64,000 nucleotides of DNA from positions 163,384-227,383 of IMG/VR virus record IMGVR_UViG_3300028888_000051; one strand, given 5' to 3'. A model generated the notes under the pieces. It was given only the letters and a program-made list of their open reading frames with translations. It searched no databases and was not told the origin of the DNA. Below, one piece after another: positions 2,438-61,030 of this stretch. Position numbers and translations under genes: made by a program. Every line of letters begins with the position of its first letter. Position 1 is the first letter of the stretch. This DNA comes from a virus. Taxonomy: Duplodnaviria > Heunggongvirae > Uroviricota > Caudoviricetes.

Positions 2438-2445
2438 TATAGAAT
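2438..2445 (-). promoter_or_regulatory. GTTCTA-type box (ATTCTATA on minus strand) upstream of 2036..2410
   Basis: Member of the recurrent TTCTA(T/A)A intergenic motif, about 30 nt from the start codon; coordinates by eye. Confidence 0.35.
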
Positions 2446-2587
2446 ATAAGTTTTAATAAAAAAGTAAATAATAATTTTTCCAAAGTTAAGAAATCGCCTA
2501 ACTACAAAGAATTTAGCTCGGCTAATCTTAGCTATACATTTTTTATTTTTAACAAAACAAAAAATATAATATAATAATATATAATTA

Positions 2588-2612
2588 ATAATATAATATA
2601 ATATAATATAAT
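2588..2612. repeat. (ATAAT)5 pentanucleotide microsatellite followed by an A8 run
   Basis: Five perfect tandem ATAAT units read directly in the 330-bp ORF-free divergent intergenic region 2411..2740. Confidence 0.8.
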
Positions 2613-2713
2613 AAAAAAAAACAAAAAATTATTTTAACTTTTGCATTAACACTAACTTTGGCTTTTTATTTTTAAAATTTTTTAAATTTAAATATTTATG
2701 TTTTTTTGAAATA

Positions 2714-2730
2714 AGTTCTAAATTCTAAAA
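2714..2730 (+). promoter_or_regulatory. tandem AGTTCTAAATTCTAAAA box immediately upstream of the RBS of 2741..3298
   Basis: Two overlapping TTCTAAA copies followed by GGAGA and ATG at 2741. Confidence 0.35.
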
Positions 2731-2740
2731 GGAGAAAATT

Positions 2741-3298
2741 ATGCAAATTTATGGTAATCCTAATTTATCTGATAAATTTTTTGTTTATTTAGAAGATAAT
2801 AGTATTAATTATGTAAGAGATTTTGAAACAGCTAAGGGTTATATTCAAAATCCAAATTATAAAAAATGGTTTGGAAAAACTTTATATTGTACAAATGAAG
2901 ATATAGTAAAAGCTTATGATGGTAAATTGTACTTAAAAAGCAAAGTTCCAGAAAATCCAAATGAAATAAAAATATATGATAATAAATCTTTTTTTATTAA
3001 TAATTGTAAAAAATATATTGAAAATACATTAAATGATTTGAGTATTGAATATGGTTATGTATCTTTTTATCAATTAATATCTTGGAAAGATTCAAAAATA
3101 TTAAAAAACAAACAATTAGCTGAAAAAATGTTAAATTATCGTGATAAATTATATAATTTCTATTCAAAAATATACAATAAACATAAAAAACAACTAGAAA
3201 ATACATCAGAATTATTAGATTTATCAAATATTTACACAGAATTTTTAGAAAATATTCCAAAATTTAAAAAAGTTAAAGAAAATGAAACAAACAATTAG
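2741..3298 (+). CDS. hypothetical protein (185 aa)
   Basis: ORF with strong AAAGGAGA RBS; overlaps the next gene by 17 nt. Confidence 0.55.
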   Translation: MQIYGNPNLSDKFFVYLEDNSINYVRDFETAKGYIQNPNYKKWFGKTLYCTNEDIVKAYDGKLYLKSKVPENPNEIKIYDNKSFFINNCKKYIENTLNDLSIEYGYVSFYQLISWKDSKILKNKQLAEKMLNYRDKLYNFYSKIYNKHKKQLENTSELLDLSNIYTEFLENIPKFKKVKENETNN

Positions 3299-4184
3299 AT
3301 TATATATAATACCTACTTATAAAAATCCTTATGTAGATGAATATTATCTATTTGATCAAAATAATAAAAATACACTAGATGTAGTATGGTTAGATAATGC
3401 TTTAATTGAATTAAAAAATAATTATAATATTTTACAAACAGAAATTTGTGGGGGAGAAATAACAGTATTATCTGATTTTTATTTTAATATTTTGTTTCAA
3501 TTAATAAAAATGAATTGTAATAAAATTATTGTATCTACAAATTTTATAGATTTTAATAAATCTATAATAAATCTTTGTGATATAATTAATGTAAAATATA
3601 ATTTTAATGGTTATAGTAAATATAAAACTATTGTTTATAACAATATAAAGGCAGCAATAGCTGAAAATAAAATTATTAATTTAAAATCACTAGATATATC
3701 TTGTAAAAACAATCATAAATTAATTATTGAAGACTTAAATAGATTAAAAATAAAATCTTGGGAAATTATTCCATATCATCAATCTATTTATTCAAAAGCT
3801 ATTCCATTAAATTATACTGAATATGAAGAATTAATAAGAAAATATTTATTTTCAGCAAAAGATATGAAGTTTGCTTTTCAAAATAAACTTCAATTAGATG
3901 AAATCTTACCAATAGATAACTATAATATTAAAAATATTTATATTACACCGAATAATAAATTTGCCATAACAGAATTTAACAAAAACAATAAATTTAAATT
4001 CGTTGAATATGATAATTTATCTAATTTACAGAAAAAAATAGAAGAAATGGAAAATTTACGTGATAATTTTTGTTATAATTGTGATTCTAAATTACGATGT
4101 CTAGCAAATAGATTAATAAATTTAAATTATACTGGTAAAAGTTGTAGTGGTTTTAAAGATTTAATAAAATATTATAACAAATAA
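3282..4184 (+). CDS. radical-SAM-like paralogue lacking the Cys triad (possible pseudo-enzyme)
   Basis: GGE motif (EICGGEIT) and the following STNF segment sit at the same distance from the N-terminus as in the four rSAM paralogues at 21.7-25.5 kb. CxxxCxxC is replaced by YKNPYVDE. Cys-rich C-terminus CYNCDSKLRC..SC. Confidence 0.35.
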   Translation: MKQTIRLYIIPTYKNPYVDEYYLFDQNNKNTLDVVWLDNALIELKNNYNILQTEICGGEITVLSDFYFNILFQLIKMNCNKIIVSTNFIDFNKSIINLCDIINVKYNFNGYSKYKTIVYNNIKAAIAENKIINLKSLDISCKNNHKLIIEDLNRLKIKSWEIIPYHQSIYSKAIPLNYTEYEELIRKYLFSAKDMKFAFQNKLQLDEILPIDNYNIKNIYITPNNKFAITEFNKNNKFKFVEYDNLSNLQKKIEEMENLRDNFCYNCDSKLRCLANRLINLNYTGKSCSGFKDLIKYYNK

Positions 4185-4205
4185 ATATCCTTATGGAGTA
4201 GATAG

Positions 4206-5115: not shown

Positions 5116-5160
5116 TTGGAAATTTAAATAATATTTTTTGTTTATTTTAAGACTTCTATA
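5116..5160 (+). promoter_or_regulatory. bipartite TTGGAAA-N31-TTCTATA element upstream of the Rad50-like gene
   Basis: TGGAAA at 5117 and TTCTATA at 5154, the same 37-nt offset as at 8102/8139 and 20250/20287. Confidence 0.4.
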
Positions 5161-5195
5161 TTTGTGATAGTACAATTTAGAGGTCTTTTTATATT

Positions 5196-7061
5196 ATGAA
5201 ATTTAATATACGCCGGATAGAAATTGAAAATTTTAGAAGTATACAATCTAAGGTTACAATTAATATTAAACCTGGTCTATATTCTATTGAAGGTATAAAT
5301 AATGATGAAAAAACCAGTACGAATGGAGCGGGAAAATCTTCATTAATTTCAGCTTTATATTGGTGTTTAACTGGCAATGCTTTAACAAATGAAGCATTAG
5401 CCGATGATGTCATAAACGCTAAGGTTGGTAAGAATTGTAAAGTAAGTGTTTTTATTGAATCATTACAAGGTGATATAAAAATCACTAGGACAAGAGGAGA
5501 TTCTGAATTTGGTAATAATTTATTTCTTGAAATAGCAGATCAAGATTTAACTTGTCATAAAGTTGCGGATACTCAAACAAGAATTAATCAATTGTTTAAG
5601 ATTCCGTTTGATTTATTACATAGTACTATCATGATGACTCACGACATTAAGTCTGCTTTTTCTGAACTTACTCCACAACAACGTGTACAAACTTTAGAAA
5701 GTATACGTGATTATTCTATTTGGGATAAAGTTAGAGATGAAGCAAATAAAGATATCAAAATATATAACAAAGAAATACAGGAGCTTAATTTGAAATTAAG
5801 TAACATGAATGGTAGTAAGCAAACATATGAAAAAATGATTGCTGCTGCGGGAGAAAACTATAAAGTAGTTGTTAAATCTTTTGATAAAATCGAAATTGAT
5901 AATAAAATTAATAGTCTAATAGAAGAAAATAAAAACTATGCTATTGAAATAGCAAATTTAGAATCTGATATTAAGGAATTTAATAATTTTATTGAAAAAA
6001 ATACAGATAATTCTTTACAAAAAAGACTTAATGAGATTACTGATACTGCTAGCAATATTAAACTTTCACTTCAGAGTGCGGAATACGAACGGAAAGAGAA
6101 AGTAAAGGATATTGATATTATCAATGCTTGGTTTAAAAATGATAAATGTCCTACCTGCGGTCATTTATTGGATAGAACAGAAGAAGAAAAAGCTGTAAAA
6201 TCTAGCCATCGTGATGAATTAAATAAACAGCTCAATCTAATTGATGAAAAAGTAAAAAAATTAAATAATGATATTGCTTTAAAGCGAGAAGAGTGGGCAC
6301 AAGTAAATACTCAATTGAAGGTTAGTGAAAAAACTTTAACAGATTTTAGAGCTAAATTGAGTGAAAGTAATAATAAGATAAATATTCTTAAGAGTAAAGA
6401 GCTTGCAAATACGCGAGAGTTAGCTAAGCTTGAGTTAGAAAAAAATACTCACTCTTCTCAAGTAGATAAGTTAGACAAAGATATTATCTCTTATAAAAAA
6501 GAAATAGAGTCAATCTCAGCTGGCGAAGCTATCATCAATGAACAACTTAAGTTACTTGAAAATAAAAAAGAGTTATCTGATTACTTTTTTAAGTTACTTG
6601 GTAGTAAAGGTGAGTTAAGGCCTTATCTTTTAAAACAAGATATTTGTTATTTAAATAACTGTATGCAAACATATATACATCAATTTTTTGAAAATACTGA
6701 AGTTGAATTACGTTTAGAAGGTCCAAATATAGAGATTTTAATAAATAGTAATGGTATTAAGAAAAAAGTAACAAGCTTATCGGGTGGTGAAAAAAAGCGC
6801 CTTAATATTGCTATTCAACTTGGTCTATATGATTTAATACAAGCTACTTCACAAGTATGTTTTAATGTACTTTGGTTAGATGAAATTGAATCAGAATTAG
6901 ATCAAGCAGGTGTAAATCAATTAATTAATATAATTGAAGATAAATCTAATGATGCTGAAACTGTATTTTGGATTACAAATCATCCAAACGTTAAGGAAAG
7001 TATTACAAATAAAATTATATGTACTAAATCTTTAGGTGTAACAACTATTGAGGAGAGATAA
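5196..7061 (+). CDS. Rad50/SbcC-type recombination ATPase (T4 gp46-like)
   Basis: Walker A NGAGKSS; long coiled coil with central zinc hook CPTCGH; ABC signature LSGGEKKR; Walker B LWLDEIE. Confidence 0.9.
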   Translation: MKFNIRRIEIENFRSIQSKVTINIKPGLYSIEGINNDEKTSTNGAGKSSLISALYWCLTGNALTNEALADDVINAKVGKNCKVSVFIESLQGDIKITRTRGDSEFGNNLFLEIADQDLTCHKVADTQTRINQLFKIPFDLLHSTIMMTHDIKSAFSELTPQQRVQTLESIRDYSIWDKVRDEANKDIKIYNKEIQELNLKLSNMNGSKQTYEKMIAAAGENYKVVVKSFDKIEIDNKINSLIEENKNYAIEIANLESDIKEFNNFIEKNTDNSLQKRLNEITDTASNIKLSLQSAEYERKEKVKDIDIINAWFKNDKCPTCGHLLDRTEEEKAVKSSHRDELNKQLNLIDEKVKKLNNDIALKREEWAQVNTQLKVSEKTLTDFRAKLSESNNKINILKSKELANTRELAKLELEKNTHSSQVDKLDKDIISYKKEIESISAGEAIINEQLKLLENKKELSDYFFKLLGSKGELRPYLLKQDICYLNNCMQTYIHQFFENTEVELRLEGPNIEILINSNGIKKKVTSLSGGEKKRLNIAIQLGLYDLIQATSQVCFNVLWLDEIESELDQAGVNQLINIIEDKSNDAETVFWITNHPNVKESITNKIICTKSLGVTTIEER

Positions 7062-7064
7062 TTA

Positions 7065-8099
7065 ATGAAAATAATGGTTTTTGGAGATATACATTTTCAT
7101 AATTCACATCGTTTTTCAAATATTGAACCTCAAGGATATACAACTAGAGAAATTGAACAATATAATTGTGCAAATACATTAATTAAAATAGCCAAAGAAG
7201 AAAATATTGATAAAGTTGTATTTTTAGGTGATGCTTGGCAAGCTGTTGGAGATACAATTTCTGCTGAAACGCAATCAATTATGATTGAATTTTTTGCTCA
7301 ATTGAGAAGATATTTACCAAATTTAGCAGTAATTCTTGGTAATCATGATTTAATTAATAATGATCCAACTATAAATAAACTTAATTTTCTTAAATATATG
7401 CCTCCAATTGAATTTTTTTCAAAACCTGAGGTAAAAAATGAGTTTGTTTATATGCCTTATTGTTTAAATGACGATGAAGCTATTCGTTTTTTAGAAAATA
7501 TTTCAGAAAAACAAAATAAAATAGTTTTTTCACATTTAGAATTAGGAGGAATAAATTTGGGTAATGGTATTTTTACTCAAAAAGGCGTTCCATTAGATTT
7601 ACTTAAACAATTTAAAATGACTTTACAAGGACACTATCATTCAGGTGGAAGTTATGGTCATAAAATTCAAATAGCTGGTTCTACACAAAGGCTTTCTTTT
7701 AAAGATAAAGGTATTTCACGTAATAATATTATTATTTATAATACTGATACTGATAAAATTATTAGAAAAAGTTTTGAAAGTCCAGATTGGTTAGTATTTG
7801 ATGATGATAACATAGAGAATATTCTTAAAATAGACAATAATAATTACGTTAAGGTTGATTTAACCAGTGATATTTTATTAACATCTGAAATAAAAACTAA
7901 ATTAGAACAAGTAAAAAATAAAACAGTACATATAGATTTAACACGTATATCTATAAATAAACAAATTACAGAAGAAATATCAGAAAAAGAAGATAATTTA
8001 GATGTAATAAGAAAATTTATTATTAAATCTAATAATACAGATGATAAAAAAGAACAATTAATACAAGAAGGAGTAAGATTATTAAATAAAATTAGTTAA
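7065..8099 (+). CDS. Mre11/SbcD-type nuclease (T4 gp47-like)
   Basis: Calcineurin-like phosphoesterase motifs GDIH, LGDAW, GNHD, SHLE, GHYH; directly follows the Rad50-like gene. Confidence 0.9.
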   Translation: MKIMVFGDIHFHNSHRFSNIEPQGYTTREIEQYNCANTLIKIAKEENIDKVVFLGDAWQAVGDTISAETQSIMIEFFAQLRRYLPNLAVILGNHDLINNDPTINKLNFLKYMPPIEFFSKPEVKNEFVYMPYCLNDDEAIRFLENISEKQNKIVFSHLELGGINLGNGIFTQKGVPLDLLKQFKMTLQGHYHSGGSYGHKIQIAGSTQRLSFKDKGISRNNIIIYNTDTDKIIRKSFESPDWLVFDDDNIENILKIDNNNYVKVDLTSDILLTSEIKTKLEQVKNKTVHIDLTRISINKQITEEISEKEDNLDVIRKFIIKSNNTDDKKEQLIQEGVRLLNKIS

Positions 8100-8100
8100 A

Positions 8101-8145
8101 TTGGAAAATTTATTTAAATATTTTATGGATTATTTAACTTCTATA
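8101..8145 (+). promoter_or_regulatory. bipartite TTGGAAAA-N31-TTCTATA element upstream of the gp32-like gene
   Basis: Same spacing and sequence classes as 5116..5160. Confidence 0.4.
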
Positions 8146-8202
8146 AAATGTAAAGTTTAATTTTTTGAATATAAACATGTTTATTTAAAAGGAAAATGTA
8201 AA

Positions 8203-10408: not shown

Positions 10409-10516
10409 GATTATTTACTATTTGGAAATTTAATTTCTCAATGATTTTACAAATTAAAGTTTTTAAATTAATTTATTATTCATAAGTGTATTTTAATAAA
10501 AAGGGAATTATCATAG

Positions 10517-11551
10517 ATGCTAAATGGAATTAAAAAAGCTAAAATTTCTAAGCGCACAAATAGAAAGCAAAATTTTAAAAAGTTTATAGAATCTAATTAT
10601 ACTGATATTCAAGCTTTTTTAAATGCATGTCATAATGATGAAGATTTGCTTATTTATACATGTCTTAAGCCAAATGAATTACAAGAAATTATTGAAAAAA
10701 TTAAACCATTAAAAACATTAGAAGAAAAGATAGATTATTTAGTTAATAATCAGCCAATTATGAATTCTGATCCAGAACGATTTGATAGATGTGTACAATC
10801 ACTTGTAATGTATCTTAAAGGATATATTGAATATAATGGATATAAATTAGCTAATTCTAATGGTAATTATGAAGACCAGGCAGCTGAATTTTATCTTAAA
10901 TATGTAAAAATTTGTAATTTTTATCGTACTCGTTGGTTTTATCCAGAAACATTAAAAAAAGCATCAACTGTACAATATAATCCAATGCTTTATAAAGAGT
11001 TTTTATATATTATAAGACTTTCTATTTCTGGTGATAGAAAGCATAAAGCTTTTTTAGCAACACAAGATGAAAATGCTTCAATTTTTAAATTATCACTTGA
11101 TTCTAAGATAGATGATGGTAAAGGTGAAAAAAGATTAGGAGATGTTGTTCCAGATACACAGCATAGTATTGAATATACTCAAAATATAACAGAAGTGAAT
11201 AATATTTTAACAAAAGCATTAAGATTAATTAAAGAATATCCAGATGCTGTAAAAAACTATAGTAAAATAAAAGAGTTTTACGAAAAACAAGATCCAATAG
11301 GATTTGATAAAAAAACAGTATTACTCGGAAAAATATTTTTATATAAAGCTGGTTTAGTCAGTCCAAAAATTTTACAATTTATAAAATCATTATCTTCAAC
11401 ATATAAATTAAGATATAATATTTCACAAGCACGTATTAATGCACAGATTCAAGAACAAAAGAAGATAATGACAGGAAAACCAATAAAAAAAGTAAAGACT
11501 GAAGATTTGACTTATAAAGAATTAATTTTTAAGAAAAGAGGAGAGCTATAA
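10517..11551 (+). CDS. hypothetical protein with sigma-70-like features (candidate phage sigma factor)
   Basis: YEDQAAEFYLKYVKICNFY resembles region 2.1/2.2. FKLSLDSKIDDGKGEKRLGDVVPD resembles the SLD..(acidic)..LGD..D linker before region 4. By-eye match only. Confidence 0.35.
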   Translation: MLNGIKKAKISKRTNRKQNFKKFIESNYTDIQAFLNACHNDEDLLIYTCLKPNELQEIIEKIKPLKTLEEKIDYLVNNQPIMNSDPERFDRCVQSLVMYLKGYIEYNGYKLANSNGNYEDQAAEFYLKYVKICNFYRTRWFYPETLKKASTVQYNPMLYKEFLYIIRLSISGDRKHKAFLATQDENASIFKLSLDSKIDDGKGEKRLGDVVPDTQHSIEYTQNITEVNNILTKALRLIKEYPDAVKNYSKIKEFYEKQDPIGFDKKTVLLGKIFLYKAGLVSPKILQFIKSLSSTYKLRYNISQARINAQIQEQKKIMTGKPIKKVKTEDLTYKELIFKKRGEL

Positions 11552-12096: not shown

Positions 12097-12110
12097 TAAG
12101 TTCTAAATAA
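12097..12110 (+). promoter_or_regulatory. TAAGTTCTAAATAA box, copy 1
   Basis: 14-nt string identical to 12251..12264; lies just after the folA stop. Confidence 0.3.
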
Positions 12111-12132
12111 TGTCAATTGTTTTATAATTGAT

Positions 12133-12184
12133 AGAAGAGTAATTAAGGTTTCCCCCTCCTTTCCCTGATTACTCTTCTTTTTTA
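12133..12184 (+). terminator. rho-independent-type terminator after folA
   Basis: 11-bp perfect stem AGAAGAGTAAT/ATTACTCTTCT with a C-rich 24-nt loop, followed by a T-run. Confidence 0.6.
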
Positions 12185-12250: not shown

Positions 12251-12264
12251 TAAGTTCTAAATAA
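12251..12264 (+). promoter_or_regulatory. TAAGTTCTAAATAA box, copy 2, upstream of 12300..13250
   Basis: Identical 14-mer, about 40 nt upstream of ATG 12300. Confidence 0.4.
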
Positions 12265-15526: not shown

Positions 15527-15556
15527 AAGAGAGTCATATTTCAGACTCTCTTTTTA
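15527..15556 (+). terminator. rho-independent-type terminator after the tail fibre gene
   Basis: Stem AAGAGAGTC/GACTCTCTT, 8-nt loop, T-run. Confidence 0.65.
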
Positions 15557-15567: not shown

Positions 15568-15586
15568 AAGTTCTATAAAATAAATA
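15568..15586 (+). promoter_or_regulatory. AAGTTCTATAAAATAAATA box upstream of the prohead protease gene
   Basis: GTTCTA box fused to a TATAAATA-like string; about 45 nt upstream of ATG 15627. Confidence 0.45.
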
Positions 15587-18614: not shown

Positions 18615-18625
18615 AGTTCTAATTT
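18615..18625 (+). promoter_or_regulatory. AGTTCTAATTT box upstream of the scaffold-like gene
   Basis: GTTCTA box about 50 nt upstream of ATG 18673. Confidence 0.35.
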
Positions 18626-20249: not shown

Positions 20250-20294
20250 TGGAAAAATTTTGAGCTATTTTTTTAAAATATATAAATTCTAATA
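20250..20294 (+). promoter_or_regulatory. bipartite TGGAAAAA-N31-TTCTAAT element
   Basis: Same 37-nt offset as at 5117/5154 and 8102/8139. Confidence 0.35.
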
Positions 20295-20336
20295 TAGAGA
20301 AATAGTTTATGTATAATAAAGGAAATAATTATAACT

Positions 20337-25451: not shown

Positions 25452-25474
25452 TTTAACTCCTCTTTAATTTATAT

Positions 25475-25500
25475 TTTAGAACTGAAATGAGTTCTATATA
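25475..25500. promoter_or_regulatory. divergent pair of GTTCTA boxes (TTTTAGAAC ... GAGTTCTATATA)
   Basis: The minus-strand copy faces the rSAM operon (start 25451). The plus-strand copy lies about 30 nt before ATG 25526. Confidence 0.45.
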
Positions 25501-27920: not shown

Positions 27921-27933
27921 AGTTCTAAATTTA
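27921..27933 (+). promoter_or_regulatory. AGTTCTAAATTTA box upstream of 27969..28670
   Basis: Starts right after the upstream stop codon, about 40 nt before the ATG. Confidence 0.4.
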
Positions 27934-29280: not shown

Positions 29281-29324
29281 AATAAACACGCATATATAGA
29301 ATTCCTATAATACACGTGTTTATT
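29281..29324 (-). terminator. 10-bp perfect inverted repeat (AATAAACACG/CGTGTTTATT) with U-run on the minus strand; the loop carries an ATTCTATAT box
   Basis: Lies between the end of 29363..30163 and the start of tdk. The loop contains the TTCTATA motif about 35-43 nt from the tdk ATG. Confidence 0.5.
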
Positions 29325-30233: not shown

Positions 30234-30246
30234 TATATAGAACTAT
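30234..30246 (-). promoter_or_regulatory. AAATAGTTCTATA box (minus strand) upstream of 29363..30163
   Basis: GTTCTA box about 75 nt from the start codon. Confidence 0.3.
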
Positions 30247-30336: not shown

Positions 30337-30348
30337 AAGTTCTATAAA
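30337..30348 (+). promoter_or_regulatory. AAGTTCTATAAA box (preceded by TTTCTAAAT) upstream of the fibre cassette
   Basis: Two adjacent TTCTA motifs at about 30322 and 30340; 105-130 nt before ATG 30454. Confidence 0.3.
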
Positions 30349-42377: not shown

Positions 42378-42391
42378 TTATATCTCCTTTT

Positions 42392-42493: not shown

Positions 42494-42618
42494 TCTTCTT
42501 TTATATTTAAATCAATATCATCATTTTCAATTAACTCTTTAATACGTCTGGCAATAGTATATCTACCATATCCTAATACTCTATCTATAATAATATTTAT
42601 GTTATATCTTTTAGTCAT
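42490..42618 (-). CDS. small protein (42 aa), possible helix-turn-helix, not in the ORF track
   Basis: Hand translation MTKRYNINIIIDRVLGYGRYTIARRIKELIENDDIDLNIKEE; 8-nt overlap with 42611..42826. Confidence 0.35.
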   Translation of the reverse strand: MTKRYNINIIIDRVLGYGRYTIARRIKELIENDDIDLNIKEE

Positions 42619-42826
42619 TTAGAACTCTATCTTCTATTAGAGTATTTTTTAATTTATTAAGCTCTTGTTTTAGTTCATCTAAAGTCAAATTTTTATCATT
42701 AGTCATATTAATTCTACCAAGATGCTTATACCAAGTGATTAACAAACCTGTTTCAGTGTCTAAAATGTAAAAATCATCCTCATATCTAGTTAAAATAAAC
42801 TCATAACTATTATACCCAGATGTCAA
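42611..42826 (-). CDS. hypothetical protein (71 aa), TTG start
   Basis: The TTG start overlaps the TGA stop of the upstream 34-aa ORF (TTGA), consistent with translational coupling. Confidence 0.45.
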   Translation of the reverse strand: MTSGYNSYEFILTRYEDDFYILDTETGLLITWYKHLGRINMTNDKNLTLDELKQELNKLKNTLIEDRVLND

Positions 42827-42927: not shown

Positions 42928-42943
42928 TATTTTCTTCCTTTCA

Positions 42944-44199: not shown

Positions 44200-44230
44200 T
44201 CTTCATTCTCCAAACGTGCTTTTAAAATAT

Positions 44231-46262: not shown

Positions 46263-46272
46263 TTTATTTCTC

Positions 46273-46800: not shown

Positions 46801-46803
46801 ATC

Positions 46804-47268: not shown

Positions 47269-47684
47269 TATTCTTTATCCTTGTTTTCTTTAATGTTCAT
47301 GTCTTTTTCGGTTAAAATGATCATTTTTCCATTTTCTGGACTAATTTGCAATACAGCTTGTCTGATGATACAATCGTTACCTAAACTTTGCGGAATATTA
47401 TACCACCAGTCAATAACGCTTTGACAATCTTCTTCATCAAAATCTCTCAAATCACCAAATAAAGCAATAGTTCGCATATAATCAGAAGCGTCATCATCAG
47501 CTCTATCTATGAACTCTATATCAATACTTCCTTCTGATCCTGTTGGTAAATTACCATTATCATTTGGATGATACCAAGTATTTCTCACAAAGATTTTAGA
47601 GAAATCAGTTTTGCTGTTTGGTTGTAAAATCATTTTCATATCGTCTACTCTGATACAGCCTGTAATATGTGTCCAAATGCTCAT
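47268..47684 (-). CDS. hypothetical protein (138 aa)
   Basis: Member of the minus-strand chain; 1-nt overlap with the upstream ORF. Confidence 0.5.
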   Translation of the reverse strand: MSIWTHITGCIRVDDMKMILQPNSKTDFSKIFVRNTWYHPNDNGNLPTGSEGSIDIEFIDRADDDASDYMRTIALFGDLRDFDEEDCQSVIDWWYNIPQSLGNDCIIRQAVLQISPENGKMIILTEKDMNIKENKDKE

Positions 47685-48028
47685 TATTTTGTTTCCTTAT
47701 ATCCTTCAAAATTCCAAAAATCTATCATATTTTCACCATGTAAATATTCAATAGCAAATTTAGGAAAGTGACACCAAGTATTGTCATCAAGCATAATGGC
47801 TATGTCATTCTCATCACTTCTTTTTCTTGCAAACAATTTTGAAGATTCACACCAACCAATTATTTTGCTCTTTATAAATTCCTTGTTTTCGTACATATCA
47901 TAAAAATTTGTACAAAATTCACGATTCCAATTTTCAAAAAGAAATTTATTACTTGATAATTTCGGAATACTATTACTCATACTTTTACTTTCAAATGTGA
48001 TAAAATATACATAACATGTATAATTCAA
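47684..48028 (-). CDS. hypothetical protein (114 aa), first gene of the minus-strand chain
   Basis: Faces the 350-bp divergent intergenic region 48029..48380. Confidence 0.5.
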   Translation of the reverse strand: MNYTCYVYFITFESKSMSNSIPKLSSNKFLFENWNREFCTNFYDMYENKEFIKSKIIGWCESSKLFARKRSDENDIAIMLDDNTWCHFPKFAIEYLHGENMIDFWNFEGYKETK

Positions 48029-48302: not shown

Positions 48303-48312
48303 GGTTCTAATT
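48303..48312 (+). promoter_or_regulatory. GGTTCTAATT box upstream of 48381..48791
   Basis: GTTCTA box about 70 nt upstream of the ATG. Confidence 0.3.
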
Positions 48313-48380
48313 AATAGTTATCAAGTTCCACTAATTTAATATTTCTATTTTATTTAACATTTAACTATTAAGATATAAAA

Positions 48381-49761: not shown

Positions 49762-50253
49762 ATGGCTGAGCATAAAAAAAGAGGCACATATGAATTAACA
49801 TCTGAAGAATTAGCATCATCTGAAATGGTATTTATTGCCTGTACTTTATTAGAAAGTCGTGGTTATCCAGGATTTATGGAAATGCTAAATGTTTTGGACA
49901 ATCCTTCACTTGTAATAAAATTAATTCGTCTTTTTTATGGTATGACTATAAAATTTCCATCGATACAAGAATTTCAAGATTGTCTAAAAGCTTCAGAATA
50001 TATATTTACAGATTTTCATAAAAAAGTAAATGACATGCTTGTTGTAAAACCACTAGATATACGTAATCATATGCATATAACAGAGGAAGAAGAAGATAAA
50101 TTACTAAAATTATTTGATGAATGGGTACTTTATATGCATAAAGCTGGTTATCCAATTGAAAAATTGATGCATATTAATAGAAATATAACAAAAAAACGTA
50201 TTGAATCAGTTGTAACAGGTAAAAGAGCAAAAAAGAGTAAAAAGATTAGCTAG
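49762..50253 (+). CDS. hypothetical protein (163 aa)
   Basis: Abuts the upstream ORF; basic C-terminus. Confidence 0.5.
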   Translation: MAEHKKRGTYELTSEELASSEMVFIACTLLESRGYPGFMEMLNVLDNPSLVIKLIRLFYGMTIKFPSIQEFQDCLKASEYIFTDFHKKVNDMLVVKPLDIRNHMHITEEEEDKLLKLFDEWVLYMHKAGYPIEKLMHINRNITKKRIESVVTGKRAKKSKKIS

Positions 50254-50264
50254 TTCTATAATAT
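50251..50264 (+). promoter_or_regulatory. TAGTTCTATAATAT box overlapping the stop codon of 49762..50253
   Basis: About 30 nt upstream of ATG 50290. Confidence 0.4.
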
Positions 50265-50991: not shown

Positions 50992-51210
50992 ATGTATGAA
51001 AAATTAATAGATCTTAAAGATAATTTTTTATTTTGTATTGCAACTACATTTGTTGGAATTTTAATTATGATAATAGCTAGTGTTATTATAATTATAACAC
51101 TTCCAATGTATTATTTATTTTGGATAAATCCAGTATTTGAAATTTATCAAAATTTAATTTGGAAAATATATGATATATTATTTCAAATTGGATCAGATGA
51201 TGAAATTTAA
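50992..51210 (+). CDS. small membrane protein (72 aa, two hydrophobic segments); holin-like topology
   Basis: FLFCIATTFVGILIMIIASVIIIITLPMYYLFWINPVF; AAAGGAAA RBS. Confidence 0.45.
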   Translation: MYEKLIDLKDNFLFCIATTFVGILIMIIASVIIIITLPMYYLFWINPVFEIYQNLIWKIYDILFQIGSDDEI

Positions 51211-54200: not shown

Positions 54201-54344
54201 TGGCATATAATGCTCTTCATAATATGCTAAAATGTCTATAAAATCTTGTGACATAATAACATTTTGAAGTTCATTTGCATTATTAAATGAAACTATTGGA
54301 AGATTTTCTAATTTTTTTGCAATATCAGTAGGAAGTTGTTCCAT
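51207..54344 (-). CDS. terL: terminase large subunit, interrupted by an intein in the Walker A motif
   Basis: The exteins join to FGGSIG|CGKST (P-loop). Walker B-like SFMDEINE. Nuclease-domain pattern CHVDLAGGGD...DAGICIGH. Confidence 0.85.
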   Translation of the reverse strand: MEQLPTDIAKKLENLPIVSFNNANELQNVIMSQDFIDILAYYEEHYMPDEFKKQQEIQKRIALYLTLTNQDSDLTDQIDNLLYRRPMPNIEEFLSGKFYMYNSNATLYPYWRQQLEYMFREGSPVRKTIFGGSIGCLTGDTIVATLNGNKTIYELLNNYNNEWVLSFNTFNKTWEPDKIINVFCSGIKDVYKITLDNGEIIKCTSDHRFLTRKNKWKSIDTGLKSGESMMPYYSKISDKGYIQIKNNTTEKWEKRYQIVGKWKTLYKTGQVVHHKNFNKLDDRPQNLAIIPHKYHWEYHAKVGGRRWKEYNASIRGDEFKEYRRQKGIKSHITYKARLDYEEIEAKRKIGWNKLHQDSEHQRKASLAGWNGPHSEEYRQRASKTLIERNKTEKARNISKKMAENMRNLKANKSPEEKAIILAKQVLATIARFHGKENQKYIELLAFIHTREPWYDPTLGAKENYKRKKIYNHKIISIEYIGKQQVYDITTEKNHNFALKAGIIAHNCGKSTIARKAFLYVLYRILCLRYPRAVFNIDSDATIANVIISMTLKQVYETNLLPFVKLMETMPCFQRVMRMQSFENFDLSDPHCPIPFNVEKSTGTIYFPDNIIITSGSGITHTIGLNIVNSFMDEINEKGVDEALALLNSVDNRFSSRFQGSPLVFQSVVSSARTTNSPIGEYIRRLPKNDPSILILMPRLWEVKEDPEFLGDGSTFPVLVGNGSIPSKIFTDPGELKALEDGNYIPPIGCEVINVPTVYKEKFELQLDQSIQDIAGMTTVDNSTVFKDISKIEDAELPPEFNIKADISDNNDILALLDEYNLWEQLTDGRWIFKRAPFAKRYCHVDLAGGGDSGQCDAGICIGHKEWRYNENKKENETIYVVDLLIAVNARNKIDIHAIETFLINLVIERNMLIHTVSSDQWNGEIFQQNLAKSGCFEVVNKVSVDIKLEPYVNASTLMELGQVKVGICPKLRKELSALVFDRGKVTRTTELKDLADVIVGFIYNAQLNYSDFPQYEYISSNQIKEKVNDYSNFIDQSSEELQDLI
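52827..53939 (-). mobile_element. class-1 intein (371 aa) with HNH endonuclease domain
   Basis: Starts CLTGDTIV; block B CTSDHRF; HNH core VVHHKNFNKLDDRPQNLAIIPHKYHWEYH; ends VYDITTEKNHNFALKAGIIAHN followed by the +1 Cys. Coordinates derived from residues 136-506 of the track ORF. Confidence 0.8.
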
Positions 54345-54380
54345 TAATGTAATTATCCCTCTAAACTTTTTTAGATATTA

Positions 54381-54390
54381 TATAGAACAT
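54381..54390 (-). promoter_or_regulatory. ATGTTCTATA box (minus strand) upstream of terL
   Basis: About 40 nt from the terL start at 54344. Confidence 0.4.
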
Positions 54391-54410: not shown

Positions 54411-54476
54411 AGTTCTATTTAAAATAGAAAAGTATTAACAGAAAAAAGAACTTAAAATAGCATTGTTCTAATTTAT
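54411..54476 (+). promoter_or_regulatory. two GTTCTA boxes (AGTTCTATTTAAAATAG and TTGTTCTAATTTATAAAG) upstream of the tail tube gene
   Basis: At about 54411 and 54464; ATG at 54527. Confidence 0.4.
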
Positions 54477-55114: not shown

Positions 55115-55145
55115 AGGGACTTGAAATATAGTCCCTTATTTATTT
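55115..55145 (+). terminator. rho-independent-type terminator after the tail tube gene
   Basis: Stem AGGGACT/AGTCCCT, 8-nt loop, T-rich tail. Confidence 0.6.
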
Positions 55146-55149
55146 TTAC

Positions 55150-55161
55150 GGTTTTACATTT
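55150..55161 (+). repeat. GGTTTTACATTT direct repeat, left copy
   Basis: Identical 12-mer at 57170..57181; a related CTTTTACATTTT at 55090..55101. Confidence 0.6.
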
Positions 55162-55170: not shown

Positions 55171-55189
55171 AGTTCTATTATATATAAAG
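55171..55189 (+). promoter_or_regulatory. AGTTCTATTATATATAAAG box upstream of the homing-endonuclease-like gene
   Basis: About 40 nt upstream of ATG 55218. Confidence 0.4.
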
Positions 55190-55217: not shown

Positions 55218-57167
55218 ATGAAAAATATTTGTAAAAATTGCGGCAAAGAATATGAATTTGAACCAAAGCATGGAACCTATAAATTTAAGTATTGTTCTCA
55301 AGAATGTAAACATGCCTTTGCGAAAAAAGATGAAGAACCACAATATAGGATTTGTGAATATTGTGGTAAAGAATATTGGTGGAGTAATTCGTTTAAAAAT
55401 TATAAAGAATATGTACATATAGATACAAAACGTTTTTGTTCTGCTGAGTGTAGTAAAAATTATAAAAAAGAAAAAATTAAACAAACATGTTTAAAAAAAT
55501 ATGGTGTTGAATATATTTCACAAACTGCAGATGTTAAAGAAAAAATGAAAAATGCATGGAAAAATAAATCAGAAAAAGAATTAAAATTGCGTCAAGAAAG
55601 TAGAAAGCAAACTAATTTAAAAAAATATGGTGTTGAACATGTATCTAAATTATCTGAAATTAAAGAAAAAGTAAAGCAAACAAATTTAAAAAAATTTGGT
55701 GCTGAATTTTATACACAAACAGATGAATATAAAGAAAAATATAAACAAACCAATCTTAAAAAGTATGGTGTAGAGCATTGTTCACAAGTACCAAAAATAG
55801 CAGAAAAAATAAAAAATAGTCTATTAAATAAATCTAAAGAAGAATGGGTTAAAATTATAGATAAGAGAAAGCATACTAATTTAGAGAAGTATGGTACAGA
55901 AAGTGCTTCTCAGAATAATGATATAAAACAAAAAGTAAAACAAACTAATTTAAAAAAATTTGGAAACGAAATAGCAATTCAATCAGATATTATACAATCT
56001 AAAATTAAACAAAATAATCTTGAAAAATATGGTGTAAAATATAGTATAGCATCTAATGAAGTACAAGAAAAAATTCGTACTACAAATTTGAAAAGATATA
56101 ATTATGAATATCCATTTCAATCTGAAGAATTAAGAAAAATTATGGAAGAAAATAGAAAAAAGACGAATCTTAAAAAATATGGTACAGAAAACATTAGTCA
56201 AGTTAAAGAATTTAAAGAAAAAGCAAAAAATACATGTTTGAAGAAATATGGTGTACCATATAATTGTATGACTGAAAATTGTTTAGAAGTAGGACATAGT
56301 ACTATATCTAAAATAAATTTGGCTTTTAAAAATAAATTAGATAAATTAAATATTCAAAATAAACTAGAATTTCATATTGATAAATGGAGTTATGATTTTT
56401 TATGTAATGATAAGTTTTTAATTGAAATTAATCCTAGCTATACACATAATTCATCTAATACTAAAAAACGATTGGAATTTATGAAGCCAAAAGATAAATA
56501 CTATCATTTTAACAAAACTAAATTAGCTTATGAAAATGGTTATCAGTGTATTCATATATGGGATTGGGATGATAAAGAAAAAATTTTAAATATACTTGTT
56601 GATAAAAAGAAAATATATGCTAGAAAATTAATATTAAAAAATGTATCAAATGAAGAATGTAATGAGTTTTTAAATTCATATCATTTACAAAATACATGTA
56701 AAGGACAAACTATTAGATTAGGTTTATATAAAGATAATGAATTGATACAATTAATGACATTTGGAAAAGCGAGATATACAAAAAATTATGAATATGAATT
56801 ATTAAGATTATGTACAAAAGCAGAATATAAAGTTATCGGAGGAGCAGAAAAATTATTTAAACATTTTTTAATTATATATAATCCAAAATCTATAATTTCT
56901 TATTGTGATAATTCAAAATTTTCAGGAGAAGTATACAAAAGATTAAATATGAATTTGAAAGATTATGGAACACCAAGAAAGCATTGGTATCATATAGAAA
57001 AAAATAAACATATTACAGAAGCACTTTTACTTCAAAGAGGTTATTCACAATTACACGGTGATAAAGAACATATAAAAGGTGAAAATAATGAAAAACTGAT
57101 GTTAGAAGCAGGATATGTAGAAATATATGATTCTGGTCAAAGTACATATGTTTGGCATAAAAACTAA
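55218..57167 (+). CDS. free-standing homing-endonuclease-like protein (649 aa): two Zn ribbons, ten tandem repeats, nuclease-like core, C-terminal domain
   Basis: CKNCG..CSQEC and CEYCG..CSAEC. Ten copies of K.TNLKKYG.E..SQ...(I/V)KEK.KQ. YDFLCNDKFLIEINPSYTHN resembles the DUF559/Vsr-like PD-(D/E)xK core. ARKL..KNVS..E...FL..YHLQ tail. Confidence 0.55.
   Translation: MKNICKNCGKEYEFEPKHGTYKFKYCSQECKHAFAKKDEEPQYRICEYCGKEYWWSNSFKNYKEYVHIDTKRFCSAECSKNYKKEKIKQTCLKKYGVEYISQTADVKEKMKNAWKNKSEKELKLRQESRKQTNLKKYGVEHVSKLSEIKEKVKQTNLKKFGAEFYTQTDEYKEKYKQTNLKKYGVEHCSQVPKIAEKIKNSLLNKSKEEWVKIIDKRKHTNLEKYGTESASQNNDIKQKVKQTNLKKFGNEIAIQSDIIQSKIKQNNLEKYGVKYSIASNEVQEKIRTTNLKRYNYEYPFQSEELRKIMEENRKKTNLKKYGTENISQVKEFKEKAKNTCLKKYGVPYNCMTENCLEVGHSTISKINLAFKNKLDKLNIQNKLEFHIDKWSYDFLCNDKFLIEINPSYTHNSSNTKKRLEFMKPKDKYYHFNKTKLAYENGYQCIHIWDWDDKEKILNILVDKKKIYARKLILKNVSNEECNEFLNSYHLQNTCKGQTIRLGLYKDNELIQLMTFGKARYTKNYEYELLRLCTKAEYKVIGGAEKLFKHFLIIYNPKSIISYCDNSKFSGEVYKRLNMNLKDYGTPRKHWYHIEKNKHITEALLLQRGYSQLHGDKEHIKGENNEKLMLEAGYVEIYDSGQSTYVWHKN
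55476..56282 (+). repeat. ten tandem coding repeats of about 23-43 codons inside 55218..57167
   Basis: Repeat cores TCLKKYGVEY, TNLKKYGVEH, TNLKKFGAEF, TNLKKYGVEH, TNLEKYGTES, TNLKKFGNEI, NNLEKYGVKY, TNLKRYNYEY, TNLKKYGTEN, TCLKKYGVPY. Confidence 0.8.
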
Positions 57168-57169
57168 AA

Positions 57170-57190
57170 GGTTTTACATTTCTATATAAA
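57170..57190 (+). promoter_or_regulatory. GGTTTTACATTT right repeat copy fused to a TTCTATATAAA box upstream of 57233..57601
   Basis: 12-mer identical to 55150..55161; the box is about 45 nt from ATG 57233. Confidence 0.45.
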
Positions 57191-58856: not shown

Positions 58857-58866
58857 GTTCTATGAA
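58855..58866 (+). promoter_or_regulatory. GAGTTCTATGAA box overlapping the stop of 58425..58856
   Basis: About 30 nt upstream of ATG 58893. Confidence 0.35.
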
Positions 58867-59155: not shown

Positions 59156-59200
59156 TGGAAAAATAATTCAGTAGAATATTTTTATTACTTTTATTCTATA
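59156..59200 (+). promoter_or_regulatory. TGGAAAAATAATT ... GTAGAATA hairpin ... TTCTATATAAT element upstream of recA
   Basis: Shares ATAAATGGAAAAATAATT and GTAGAAT with the element at 60971..61034. Weak 7-bp stem TAGAATA/TATTCTA. Confidence 0.4.
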
Positions 59201-59231
59201 TAATACTTTTAATTATAAAAAGGAAATTAAA

Positions 59232-60326
59232 ATGGCTAAAAAAATAGAAAAAAAAGTTCAAAAGGAAAATTCTCGTGTAACTTCAGCATTATCATTACTT
59301 CGTAAAAAATTTGGTGATGATGCAGCAATGACTTTTAATGACATAGGTGTTACAAAAGTAGATGTAATTCCTTCTGGTTCTTTAAAATTAGACAAGATAT
59401 TAGGAATTGGTGGATGGCCACGTGGCAGAGTTACGCTTTTATGGGGTGATTATAGTTCTGGTAAATCAACGATATGTTTACAAGCCGTAGCTAATGCACA
59501 AAAAGAAAATTTAGTTTGTGCTTATGTTGATATGGAACATGCTTTAGATCCTATTTATGCTGAAGCACTAGGTTGTGATATGTCTGAATTAATTTTACTT
59601 CAACCAGATGGTGGTGAACAAGCACTAGAAGCTATTAAATTATTAGCACAAGAAAAAGCAGCTGATTTAATTATTCTTGATTCAATTGTTGCATGTGTAC
59701 CAGCAAGTGAATTAGATGGTGAATTATCTGATATGAATATTGGACGTCAAGCAAAGTTATTTAGTTCATTTTTTAAACAAGTTACTCCAGCACTTGAAAT
59801 AGCAAATTGTGCTTTAATTTGTACAAATCAAGTTCGCCAAGCTCCAGGTAAATATGGAGATGCATCTGTTTTACCTTGTGGAGAAGCTCAAAAATTCTTT
59901 GCTTCTATTATTTGCCGTACTCGTAGACAACAATCTCAAAAAGAAGAAAGTAAAGAAGGTGATATTATTGCAAATCAAATTAGTGTAACTACAGAAAAGA
60001 ATAAATTGGCCCCTCCATTCAGAAAAGCAGAATTAATGATTTATTATGGTAAAGGTTTTTCAGCAGATAATGAAATGTTAGATTTAGCTGTAGAATTTGG
60101 TATATTAACAAAAGCTGGAGCATTTTATAAATATAAAGGAGAAACTATTGGACAAGGATCTGCTAAAACTAAAATTTGGTTAGAAGAACATAAAGATATT
60201 AAAAATAATATAATGGAACAAGTTAAAGAAATTCTTATGAAGCCTAATAATGAAAAAATGATTTTAGAAAAAGAAGCAGAGTCAGAGTTAAATTATGATC
60301 CGGATACAGGTGAAATAATAGAATAA
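59232..60326 (+). CDS. recA: RecA recombinase (bacterial type)
   Basis: IPSGSLKLDKILGIGGWPRGRVTLLWGDYSSGKSTICLQ, AYVDMEHALDPIYAEALG, LIILDSIVA and CTNQVRQ are collinear with bacterial RecA. Confidence 0.9.
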   Translation: MAKKIEKKVQKENSRVTSALSLLRKKFGDDAAMTFNDIGVTKVDVIPSGSLKLDKILGIGGWPRGRVTLLWGDYSSGKSTICLQAVANAQKENLVCAYVDMEHALDPIYAEALGCDMSELILLQPDGGEQALEAIKLLAQEKAADLIILDSIVACVPASELDGELSDMNIGRQAKLFSSFFKQVTPALEIANCALICTNQVRQAPGKYGDASVLPCGEAQKFFASIICRTRRQQSQKEESKEGDIIANQISVTTEKNKLAPPFRKAELMIYYGKGFSADNEMLDLAVEFGILTKAGAFYKYKGETIGQGSAKTKIWLEEHKDIKNNIMEQVKEILMKPNNEKMILEKEAESELNYDPDTGEIIE

Positions 60327-60337
60327 GGAGAAATAAA

Positions 60338-60706
60338 ATGCTAGAATTTTTAAAAAAATTGTTAAGAATTGGCGAAAAATGTTATTGTGAAGGTATATGT
60401 CATTGTAAAAAGATTACATGTGATGGTCCAGATTTAGAAGAAGATTTTGATGAAACAATTACACGTAAAGATTATAAAATTACTATACCTTATAGTATAA
60501 ATGCAGAATTAAAAAAAGAAGGTATTTCGATTTCAGCTACAAAATATAATGGAAAACCTTCGTGTGTACAAATGTTTAAAGTAGTTGATGGAAAAGTAAA
60601 ATACATCGGTACATTAAAAACATATATGAACGTTAAATCTTTTAAAGATAACAACGTTTGTAATTTTAGTCGTGAAAACTTAATTTATAAAGAAAAGGAA
60701 AATTAA
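60338..60706 (+). CDS. hypothetical Cys-rich protein (122 aa)
   Basis: N-terminal CYCEGICHCKKITC cluster; lies between recA and the gapR-like gene. Confidence 0.5.
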   Translation: MLEFLKKLLRIGEKCYCEGICHCKKITCDGPDLEEDFDETITRKDYKITIPYSINAELKKEGISISATKYNGKPSCVQMFKVVDGKVKYIGTLKTYMNVKSFKDNNVCNFSRENLIYKEKEN

Positions 60707-60707
60707 A

Positions 60708-60965
60708 ATGACAGAACAAGTAGATGTTGAAGTCGGTGGTTTAAATACTGAAAGATTAAAATCTATTATTGAACGTATAGAAAATGTAGATAATGAGATT
60801 AATGCATTAAAAGAAGATAGAAAAGGTATAATGCTTGAAGCAAAATCTGCAGGTTTTGATACAAAAGCTATTACCCATGTTATTAAACAAAGAAAAAAGA
60901 ATAAAGCACAGCGAGATGAAGAGGAATTAGTTTTCGAAACCTATGAAAGAGCTGTTGGTTTATAA
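60708..60965 (+). CDS. gapR: GapR-like (DUF2312/UPF0335) DNA-binding protein
   Basis: LKSIIERIENVDNEINALKEDRKGIMLEAKSAGFDTKAITHVIKQRKKNKAQRDEEELVFETYERAVG is collinear with Caulobacter GapR as I recall it. Confidence 0.75.
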   Translation: MTEQVDVEVGGLNTERLKSIIERIENVDNEINALKEDRKGIMLEAKSAGFDTKAITHVIKQRKKNKAQRDEEELVFETYERAVGL

Positions 60966-60976
60966 TACATTATAAA

Positions 60977-61030
60977 TGGAAAAATAATTTAAATAATTTA
61001 GTAGAATCCATATAAAGTATGGATTCTATT
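60977..61030 (+). promoter_or_regulatory. TGGAAAAATAATT ... hairpin ... TTCTATTTTTATATTTA element upstream of polB
   Basis: Shares an 18-nt string with 59151..59168. The TTCTA box forms the 3' arm of the hairpin at 61002..61028. Confidence 0.4.

Follow-up and report, generated by a model that had tools for sequence, protein, structure and literature searches.

A GTTCTA Box as the Probable Core of a Phage-Specific −10-Type Promoter in an Uncultured Clade of Large Phages

The DNA considered here is a 64,000-nucleotide stretch (hereafter the window) of IMG/VR virus record IMGVR_UViG_3300028888_000051 (Caudoviricetes; positions 163,384 to 227,383), which represents 28% of a ~227-kb genome recovered as a metagenomic contig (ENA ERZ27257205 k141_5434835). 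Its intergenic regions contain a short box, GTTCTA, that recurs upstream of genes and points toward them; comparison of the window with related contigs makes promoter activity of these boxes very probable, and the hexamer is likely to be the core of a phage-specific −10-type promoter. A preliminary description, made from the sequence of the window alone, had listed 25 sites of a GTTCTA-like box as a candidate phage promoter. The interpretation of the motif as a promoter element specific to the phage clade is upheld by its placement and orientation, its persistence as a conserved island, its position after terminators, the occurrence of back-to-back pairs, and a fixed 6-nucleotide distance to two RNA 5′ landmarks.

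Placement, Orientation, and Conservation of the Box

The raw count of the longer form GTTCTAWA (where W is A or T) is unremarkable, with 15 copies in the window, 9.1 expected after shuffling, and a count this high in 4 of 100 shuffles; the signal lies in placement and orientation. After curation of the gene calls, intergenic DNA that lies upstream of a gene on its sense strand makes up 4% of the strand-space of the window, and 18 of the 32 copies of GTTCTA found on both strands fall within it (binomial P 1.6e-17). The resulting density is 3.54/kb, compared with 0/kb in other intergenic DNA, 0.07/kb in coding DNA in the sense orientation, and 0.17/kb in the antisense orientation, and the orientation within intergenic DNA is 18:0 (P 7e-4). 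Equal frequency in coding DNA and random orientation had been named beforehand as findings that would speak against a promoter, and the observed enrichment and orientation are the reverse of both. A k-mer scan without a seed, in which sense-upstream regions were compared with the window as a whole, gives GTTCTA (17 observed, 1.2 expected, P 3e-14) as the hexamer with the strongest enrichment and AGTTCTA as the corresponding heptamer. The start of GTTCTA lies 26–115 nucleotides from the start codon, and at every coordinate of the preliminary description, the sequence given there is present within 1–2 nucleotides.

The copy at 42452 probably lies inside an unannotated open reading frame (ORF) of 33 codons, which reduces the 18 copies to 17, the exact-match sites of the preliminary description. 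This ORF (42421–42522, minus strand, approximate coordinates) encodes a hydrophobic product, MIEDITNNLGIFVLALCLSCACGLLLWYTYLRK, and is located between a 71-residue ORF and the SHMT gene; the GTTCTA within it is followed by G instead of A or T, and it is the sole such "intergenic" copy.

Searches for near and distant DNA similarity to the window found no relative among the INPHARED phages, ORF 10517 as a protein query likewise retrieved none among deposited phages, and the DNA polymerase of the window shares only ~25% identity with known phages. The relatives are metagenomic contigs of up to 237–263 kb with 25–31% G+C (26% for the window), presumably of rumen or gut origin to judge by their record names. 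In ten of these relatives, GTTCTA is again the top hexamer of a seed-free scan (44 observed, 3.5 expected, P 7e-33), and its density in related loci, some of which are redundant, is 4.26/kb in sense-upstream intergenic DNA versus 0.19–0.36/kb elsewhere. The box is not enriched in three outgroup loci (L003–L005) that share only a structural protein with the window, and among the matches listed for ~200 unrelated low-G+C viral loci, each has at most one intergenic GTTCTA. Within the clade, the motif forms a conserved island in diverged intergenic DNA, even across relatives in which the 344-residue protein discussed below is only 49% identical. Upstream of the gp32-like gene, a 12-lineage alignment displays invariant TCTA columns between diverged flanks.

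Box Anatomy and the Predicted Transcription Start

The 17 sites of the window and 67 non-redundant sites of the clade share the consensus a-GTTCTA-W-A-T-A, in which only ~10 positions are informative; neither set contains information upstream of −13, which indicates that there is no −35 element. Divergent pairs stand back to back, 6–8 nucleotides apart (TAGAAC-N8-GTTCTA at 25477/25491 and TAGAAC-N6-GTTCTA in four relatives, where N is any nucleotide), an arrangement that leaves no room for upstream elements. Additionally, an intrinsic terminator (15527–15552) directly precedes the box at 15570.

Two independent landmarks lie at a fixed distance from the box. An orthologous gene with the product MTD..NSLRLS, which is absent from the window, occurs on the plus strand of four relatives (L015 at 18864, L017 at 12332, L019 at 12365, and L020 at 12163), and its ATG lies exactly 12 nucleotides past the G of GTTCTA in all of them. 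These genes have four differing spacers and no Shine–Dalgarno sequence, with a strong AAAGGAG preceding other genes of the same phages; their mRNA is probably leaderless, beginning at the A of the ATG. In ten lineages, GTTCTA-N6 is located directly after the DHFR gene and is followed by a non-coding unit, the first hairpin of which opens in every case with the G at index 12, counted from the G of the box. At index 12, 73% of the 67 clade sites have a purine. Judged by these comparisons, transcription quite probably starts 12 nucleotides past the G, i.e., 6 nucleotides past the hexamer. A start at index 12 would place GTTCTA at −12 to −7, with the preferred A just before it at −13 and the WAWA tail spanning −6 to −3. 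An alternative parsing, with TAWAWW as the −10 hexamer and GTTC as an extension on its upstream side, was rejected: transcription would then begin near index 16, within the conserved 5′ hairpin and past the conserved leaderless ATG.

Stand-Alone Boxes before Virion and Other Genes

The 25 sites had been treated as a single motif. Seventeen of them are canonical, whereas six lack the G, are accompanied by a TGGAAA box, and form a separate class, and two (57180 and 29294) are doubtful. The exact sites are 2715, 12100, 12254, 15570, 18616, 25491, 27922, 30339, 48304, 50253, 54412, 54465, 55172, and 58857 on the plus strand and 25477, 30238, and 54383 on the minus strand. They are listed below, together with one possible addition.

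2715..2724, plus strand: canonical box aGTTCTAAAT; ATG 2741 lies 26 nucleotides downstream; predicted start ~2727
12100..12109, plus strand: canonical box; DHFR stop codon 7 nucleotides upstream; would drive the candidate small RNA from 12112
12254..12263, plus strand: canonical box; small-RNA terminator ~70 nucleotides upstream, ATG 12300 46 nucleotides downstream
15570..15579, plus strand: canonical box, 18 nucleotides past terminator 15527–15552; prohead-protease fusion gene (15627) 57 nucleotides downstream
18616..18625, plus strand: canonical box; stop codon 18611 5 nucleotides upstream, ATG 18673 57 nucleotides downstream
25473..25482, minus strand: canonical box of the radical-SAM operon (ATG 25451), back to back with 25491 (TAGAAC-N8-GTTCTA)
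25491..25500, plus strand: canonical box of the gene starting at 25526, partner in the divergent pair
27922..27931, plus strand: canonical box abutting stop codon 27920; ATG 27969 47 nucleotides downstream
30234..30243, minus strand: canonical box 80 nucleotides before the VgrG3-C/lysozyme-like gene (ATG 30163); overlaps a TTTACA-N17-TATATA match
30339..30348, plus strand: canonical box; CBM5/12 fibre-like gene (30454) 115 nucleotides downstream
42616..42625, minus strand: possible further canonical box (GTTCTAAATG) in the 3′-terminal part of the 71-residue ORF, upstream of the 33-residue hydrophobic ORF and SHMT; absent from the preliminary list
48304..48313, plus strand: canonical box; ATG 48381 77 nucleotides downstream
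50253..50262, plus strand: canonical box, its G completing the TAG stop codon of the gene before it; ATG 50290 37 nucleotides downstream
54379..54388, minus strand: canonical box 44 nucleotides before the 1045-residue intein-containing terminase-like gene (ATG 54344)
54412..54474, plus strand: two tandem canonical boxes (54412 and 54465) preceding the tail-tube-like gene (54527)
55172..55181, plus strand: canonical box; DUF7487 homing-endonuclease gene 46 nucleotides downstream, terminator-like hairpin upstream
58857..58866, plus strand: canonical box abutting the TGA stop 58856; ATG 58893 36 nucleotides downstream

The boxes at 27922, 50253, and 58857 abut or overlap the upstream stop codon, as had been noticed earlier. 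The genes downstream of this class, hereafter class (i), include those for a prohead protease, a tail tube, terminase-like, fibre-like, and lysozyme-like proteins, a homing endonuclease, the radical-SAM operon, and the candidate small RNA. The block of small genes on the minus strand at 36251–48028 contains no GTTCTA motif, with the possible exception of 42620.

The two doubtful sites are described as follows.

57180..57189, plus strand: TTTCTATATAA, with no G and no TGGAAA, inside the spacer of a TTTACA-N17-TATATT match
29285..29300 (site 29294), minus strand: ATTCTATATA, located within the loop of a hairpin (AATAAACACG...CGTGTTTATT) that resembles a terminator and precedes a T-run, as read from the sequence

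A Second Class of Boxes with an Upstream TGGAAA Element

The six G-less (C/A/T)TTCTAW boxes occupy 5153, 8138, 20286, 59193, and 61023 on the plus strand and 2445 on the minus strand. The degenerate G-less pattern by itself is weakly enriched (1.77/kb versus 0.3–1.07/kb in coding DNA). At five of the six sites, the T of a TGGAAA box lies 37–38 nucleotides before TTCTA, the spacing being 47 nucleotides at 61023. In the window and its relatives together, 17 of 28 intergenic TGGAAA boxes have a TTCTA exactly 37 or 38 nucleotides downstream, whereas the spacing is scattered in coding DNA; a GGAAA box at the fixed spacing accompanies 14 of 40 G-less boxes but only 1 of 62 boxes with G (Fisher P 4e-6). 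Relative to the predicted start, the TGGAAAWWT box falls at about −48 to −40. By sequence, TGGAAAWWT with the G-less TTCTA looks like a second promoter class, class (ii), with its own binding factor. Its predicted members and one isolated TGGAAA box are listed below.

5117..5162, plus strand: class (ii) promoter of the Rad50/gp46-like gene; TGGAAA 5117, CTTCTATA 5153, spacing 37
8102..8147, plus strand: class (ii) promoter of the gp32-like gene; TGGAAA 8102, CTTCTATAAA 8138, spacing 37
20250..20295, plus strand: class (ii) promoter; TGGAAA 20250, ATTCTAAT 20286, spacing 37
59156..59202, plus strand: class (ii) promoter of RecA; TGGAAA 59156, ATTCTATATAA 59193, spacing 38
60977..61032, plus strand: class (ii) variant of the DNA polymerase gene; TGGAAA 60977, ATTCTATTT 61023, spacing 47
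2436..2482, minus strand: class (ii) promoter of a 124-residue gene (ATG 2410); TGGAAA 2482–2477, ATTCTATATG 2445–2436, spacing 38
10423..10428, plus strand: TGGAAA preceding the sigma-like gene, with no accompanying TTCTA box; likewise in relatives

The genes downstream of class (ii) are those for Rad50, the gp32-like protein, RecA, and DNA polymerase, and two of no known function. Some class (ii) promoters also contain TAGAA-N18-TTCTA. The existence of two box classes, together with a sigma-like gene behind a TGGAAA box without TTCTA, suggests a transcriptional cascade; that the two classes differ in timing is a tentative extension of this view.

Two further observations concern this class. 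At 4048–4090 on the plus strand, inside the coding sequence 3282–4184 and ~120 nucleotides before gene 4206, GGAAA-N32-TTCTA occurs at promoter spacing, and the arrangement is kept in five lineages (the window, L013 at 1986, L015 at 3552, L016 at 3003, and L019 at 3471); it could be an internal promoter or plain coding conservation. The 5′ untranslated region of the gp32-like gene (8150–8200; alignment A2, columns ~85–125) contains, from the predicted transcription start, a conserved hairpin and a TAAAACAT box, which in relatives reads TATATGACAG...CTGTATAAAACAT; by analogy with T4 gene 32, these elements may form a translational operator.

The Candidate Reader

The candidate reader of the motif is encoded downstream of the Rad50/Mre11-like genes.

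10517..11551, plus strand: candidate sigma-like specificity factor, 344 residues, all-helical and two-lobed

Its AlphaFold model (predicted local distance difference test, pLDDT, 75) is all-helical, with a disordered linker between the two lobes. In a Foldseek search of the Protein Data Bank (PDB) with this model, the first 11 matches are all sigma-A chains, with non-significant E-values of 0.08–0.3, and phiEco32 gp36 (9m7y_F) appears lower in the list at E 2.9; phage sigma factors recur among the top matches in BFVD. More than 130 close homologues are encoded on large contigs, yet an exhaustive HMMER search of 1.84 billion clustered proteins yielded only 28 cluster representatives of the family, and it recovered this narrow family alone, with no bridge to known sigma factors. 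The gene order Rad50–Mre11–small ORFs–344-residue protein is kept in all relatives and parallels the T4 order 46-47-...-55, and the protein family and the motif co-occur in every relative examined. The earlier suggestion that this ORF could be a sigma factor reading the box is plausible: the predicted fold matches and the synteny agree with it, whereas a sequence link to any sigma factor was not found. A sigma-like specificity factor is a likely assignment, and the chances that this protein reads GTTCTA appear evenly balanced.

Proposed Mechanism and Alternative Explanations

We propose that GTTCTA would serve as the core −10-region element in a clade of ~230–260-kb gut/rumen phages, with no need for a −35 element, and that an RNA polymerase core, probably that of the host, would be programmed by the 344-residue sigma-like protein, a reader parallel to T4 gp55 or phiEco32 gp36. 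Class (i), a-GTTCTA-WAWA, would stand alone, mostly before virion and lysis-type genes. Class (ii), (C/A)TTCTAT with TGGAAAWWT, would serve replication and recombination genes, with either a further activator or the alpha C-terminal domain binding to its TGGAAA box.

Several points weigh against this proposal. The division into late and replication genes is based on few annotated genes, many class (i) genes having no known function, and the genes of the relatives are crude longest-ORF calls. Every start site comes from sequence comparison. As for the reader, no Foldseek E-value falls below 0.07, and profiles of its family (A1 and the broader A4) have no sequence match in Pfam, NCBIfam, PHROG, or PDB profiles; when the A1 profile is compared with T4 gp55 in hhalign, the probability is 0.4%, and the comparison of the ORF 10517 profile with E. 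coli RpoD is likewise negative. For a sigma of two lobes, one of them sigma-4-like, a −35 element would ordinarily be expected, but the boxes have none. Finally, the motif-N6-start geometry is shared with AR9 late promoters and those of the phiKZ-type virion RNA polymerase (PMC5312081), and the window shows only 28% of the genome, so that the phage may encode an RNA polymerase of its own.

This geometry and the share of the genome in view would suit an alternative in which the promoter is recognized by an RNA polymerase of the phage itself, either multisubunit (phiKZ/AR9-like) or single-subunit, with the 344-residue protein unrelated or serving as its sigma-like subunit, as would the jumbo size of the phage (a 227-kb contig) and boxes that lack a −35 element. 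However, no RNA polymerase-like domain occurs in the scanned ORFs of the window, which comprise most of those of at least 270 residues, although phiKZ-type phages have ~9–10 scattered RNA polymerase genes, so that 2–3 would be expected in 64 kb. The ~10 informative positions are too few for a T7-type promoter, and the T4-like gene set, with its 46-47-55-like synteny, points to the host core enzyme. A scan of IMG/VR for NADFDGD codons found, among the matches listed, no locus with GTTCTA promoters. A phage-encoded polymerase is thus considered unlikely. Recognition by a host sigma without any phage sigma, whether an alternative one or the primary one remodelled as by T4 MotA/AsiA, draws on the weak sigma assignment of ORF 10517, on the resemblance of the TGGAAA box to an activator site, and on the boxes at 55172 and 30238, which overlap TTTACA-N17-TAWAWW, the TA of GTTCTA beginning a −10-like hexamer. 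Primary sigma factors need A at −11 and T at −7 (established; quoted in PMC12276001), whereas in its predicted register the motif carries T at the former position and A at the latter and is therefore incompatible with primary-sigma recognition. Taking TAWAWW as the −10 hexamer meets the same obstacle of a start near index 16 as noted above, most sites have no −35-like box, and the motif tracks the phage clade. Matches to sigma-70-type consensus sequences are not enriched (117 versus 144 expected; 110 versus 110), although such scans are uninformative in DNA of 26% G+C. This alternative appears quite improbable.

The motif might also not be a promoter at all. A GUUCUA RNA processing signal, generating 5′ ends 6 nucleotides downstream, would likewise be sense-oriented and intergenic, and a small RNA could be excised from the DHFR 3′ untranslated region; an operator half-site of a dimeric regulator would agree with the palindromic divergent pairs (TAGAAC-N6-8-GTTCTA) and with TAGAA-N18-TTCTA in class (ii). 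Most sites, however, are single and co-oriented with the downstream gene, unlike symmetric operators, and the palindromic operator was rejected on the basis of the 18:0 orientation. Under the processing model, each transcript of the pairs 6–8 nucleotides apart must start inside the opposite gene, and boxes lie behind strong terminators, which transcripts from upstream should not pass. In addition, the motif fills the −10 position, which leaves no room for another core element before the predicted start. A role other than that of a promoter is accordingly regarded as very unlikely.

Comparison with Known Promoter Systems

The preliminary description had viewed the box as an extended version of the T4 late promoter element TATAAATA with a GTTC prefix. 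This view is not supported: only 2 of 39 copies of TATAAATA are sense-upstream and intergenic, a density of 0.39/kb that equals the coding-DNA level, and GTTCTA would occupy −12 to −7 with the A/T string as a −6 to −3 discriminator, unlike the T4 element at −13 to −6. T4 late promoters, which gp55 reads together with gp33 and the gp45 clamp, thus resemble the box in architecture but do not share its sequence. The resemblance consists of a single −10-region element without −35, a position before virion genes and often right after the previous stop codon or terminator, and a candidate reader gene that follows the Rad50/Mre11 pair in the way that gene 55 follows 46 and 47. T4 gp55 has 185 residues, whereas the candidate reader has 344 residues in two lobes and no detectable gp55 similarity, and no clamp or gp33 homologue was identified within the window.

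In phiEco32, middle and late promoters contain AATGTA centred at −11.5, which is read by the phage sigma gp36 with gp79 (PMC12276001). As in that system, where a phage sigma-family protein reads the element on the host core, one hexamer near −10 would define the promoter here, a position that is assigned from the leaderless ATG in four lineages and the small-RNA hairpin in ten. The hexamer itself is different, and gp36 is a recognizable member of the sigma-70 family, whereas ORF 10517 has no sequence match. AR9 promoters have the form AACA-N6-TA/G and those of phiKZ an AT-rich box-N6-G+1 (PMC5312081). The present boxes resemble them in belonging to a jumbo phage and in the short motif, 6-nucleotide spacer, purine start, and missing −35 element, but differ in motif sequence and in that no RNA polymerase subunit genes are seen in the 64-kb window. 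Promoter recognition in AR9 depends on template-strand deoxyuridine.

Class (ii) recalls the T4 middle promoters, which combine a MotA box at −30 with a −10 element, in its bipartite structure, rigid spacing, and association with replication and recombination genes. However, TGGAAAWWT lies at about −48 to −40, in contrast to (a/t)(a/t)(a/t)TGCTTtA at −30 in T4, and the −10 part is the phage-specific TTCTA instead of the sigma-70 TAnnnT; given these differences in sequence and distance, the relation is one of analogy and not of membership. A host primary-sigma promoter (TTGACA-N17-TATAAT) disagrees with T at −11, A at −7, and the missing −35 element, and a T7-type promoter, with ~19–23 contiguous conserved bp (−17 to +6) and a single-subunit RNA polymerase gene in the phage, disagrees with the ~10 informative positions and with the scanned ORFs of the window, in which no RNA polymerase domain was found. 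Phage-specific promoters with only a −10 element are already known from T4 and phiEco32, and the present case introduces no new principle; the literature searched contained nothing relevant on GTTCTA in the role of a phage promoter, and the sequence of this promoter is previously undescribed.

A Candidate Small RNA after the DHFR Gene

The non-coding unit that provided one of the two landmarks corresponds in the window to the following feature.

12112..12183, plus strand: candidate 72-nucleotide small RNA; 5′ hairpin from motif index 12, terminator hairpin with UUUCCCCCUCCUUU loop, T-run

Its predicted fold has −22.1 kcal/mol (z −6.45), and it matches no Rfam family. The second hairpin is an intrinsic terminator, whose stem carries compensatory changes at 10 of 13 pairs; it is followed by the second box at 12254, an order repeated in several relatives. 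The conserved ~70-nucleotide unit also occurs at 11606–11672 in L015, 11643–11711 in L017, 11851–11923 in L013, 6468–6534 in L010, 11908–11976 in L019, and 11653–11759 in L022. The terminator loop carries UUUCCCCUCCUUU, which is near-invariant and resembles an anti-Shine–Dalgarno sequence (CCUCC); the unit may act as a phage small RNA by sequestering Shine–Dalgarno sequences or mimicking the 3′ end of 16S rRNA.

Other Features of the Window

Further genes referred to above, in addition to those for fibre-like proteins, SHMT, the DUF7487 homing endonuclease, RecA, and DNA polymerase that the window also encodes, are as follows.

5196–8099: Rad50/Mre11-like proteins
8203: gp32-like protein (weak match)
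11553: DHFR
15627: prohead-protease fusion
21696–25451, minus strand: four radical-SAM paralogues
51207–54344, minus strand: terminase-like protein with intein, 1045 residues
54527: tail-tube-like protein

The four tandem paralogues of ~290–350 residues (radical-SAM/4Fe-4S-like) are served by one GTTCTA box. The intein of the terminase-like protein spans residues ~149–506 and contains an HNH endonuclease domain; nearby, the DUF7487 homing-endonuclease gene (55218–57167) has its own GTTCTA box. As observed previously, the box is absent upstream of 33937, within a fibre/baseplate-like module (32000–36200) that is richer in G+C (0.34 versus ~0.25); both traits agree with host-range genes that were acquired or exchanged recently. 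The sequence GG(C/T)TTTAC(A/T) occurs five times (approximate coordinates 30250–30262, 39815–39825, and 41010–41021 on the minus strand; 55145–55156 and 57168–57180 on the plus strand), each time with TAWAWW 17–18 nucleotides downstream, e.g., TTTACT-N17-TATAAT before gene 40981; these pairs may be host-type sigma-A promoters, two of which overlap GTTCTA boxes. No tRNA genes or Rfam families were found within the window. As a clue to the host, the best match of SHMT has 46% identity, and its matches are mixed among Bacillota, Mollicutes, and archaeal metagenome-assembled genomes, from which a host was not deduced.

Implications

For an uncultured clade of phages, the analysis charts transcription units at the sequence level, with ~17 stand-alone and 6 bipartite predicted promoters in 64 kb and a start predicted for each. 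Even with no host in culture, such a map allows metatranscriptomes to be used to test the annotation of genes, their timing classes, and non-coding RNAs. The very divergent sigma-like protein and its defined candidate DNA target also form a convenient pair for studying how −10 recognition is rewired. It is conceivable, albeit somewhat doubtful, that the 344-residue protein founds a sequence-orphan family of sigma-like factors in one clade of gut/rumen jumbo phages and alone directs RNA polymerase to the −10-only GTTCTA promoter. If so, this promoter would also drive a small RNA whose loop mimics an anti-Shine–Dalgarno sequence, and together with the TGGAAA-dependent G-less subclass and the TTCTA-less TGGAAA box of the sigma-like gene itself, it would constitute a complete phage-encoded transcription cascade that is readable from sequence.

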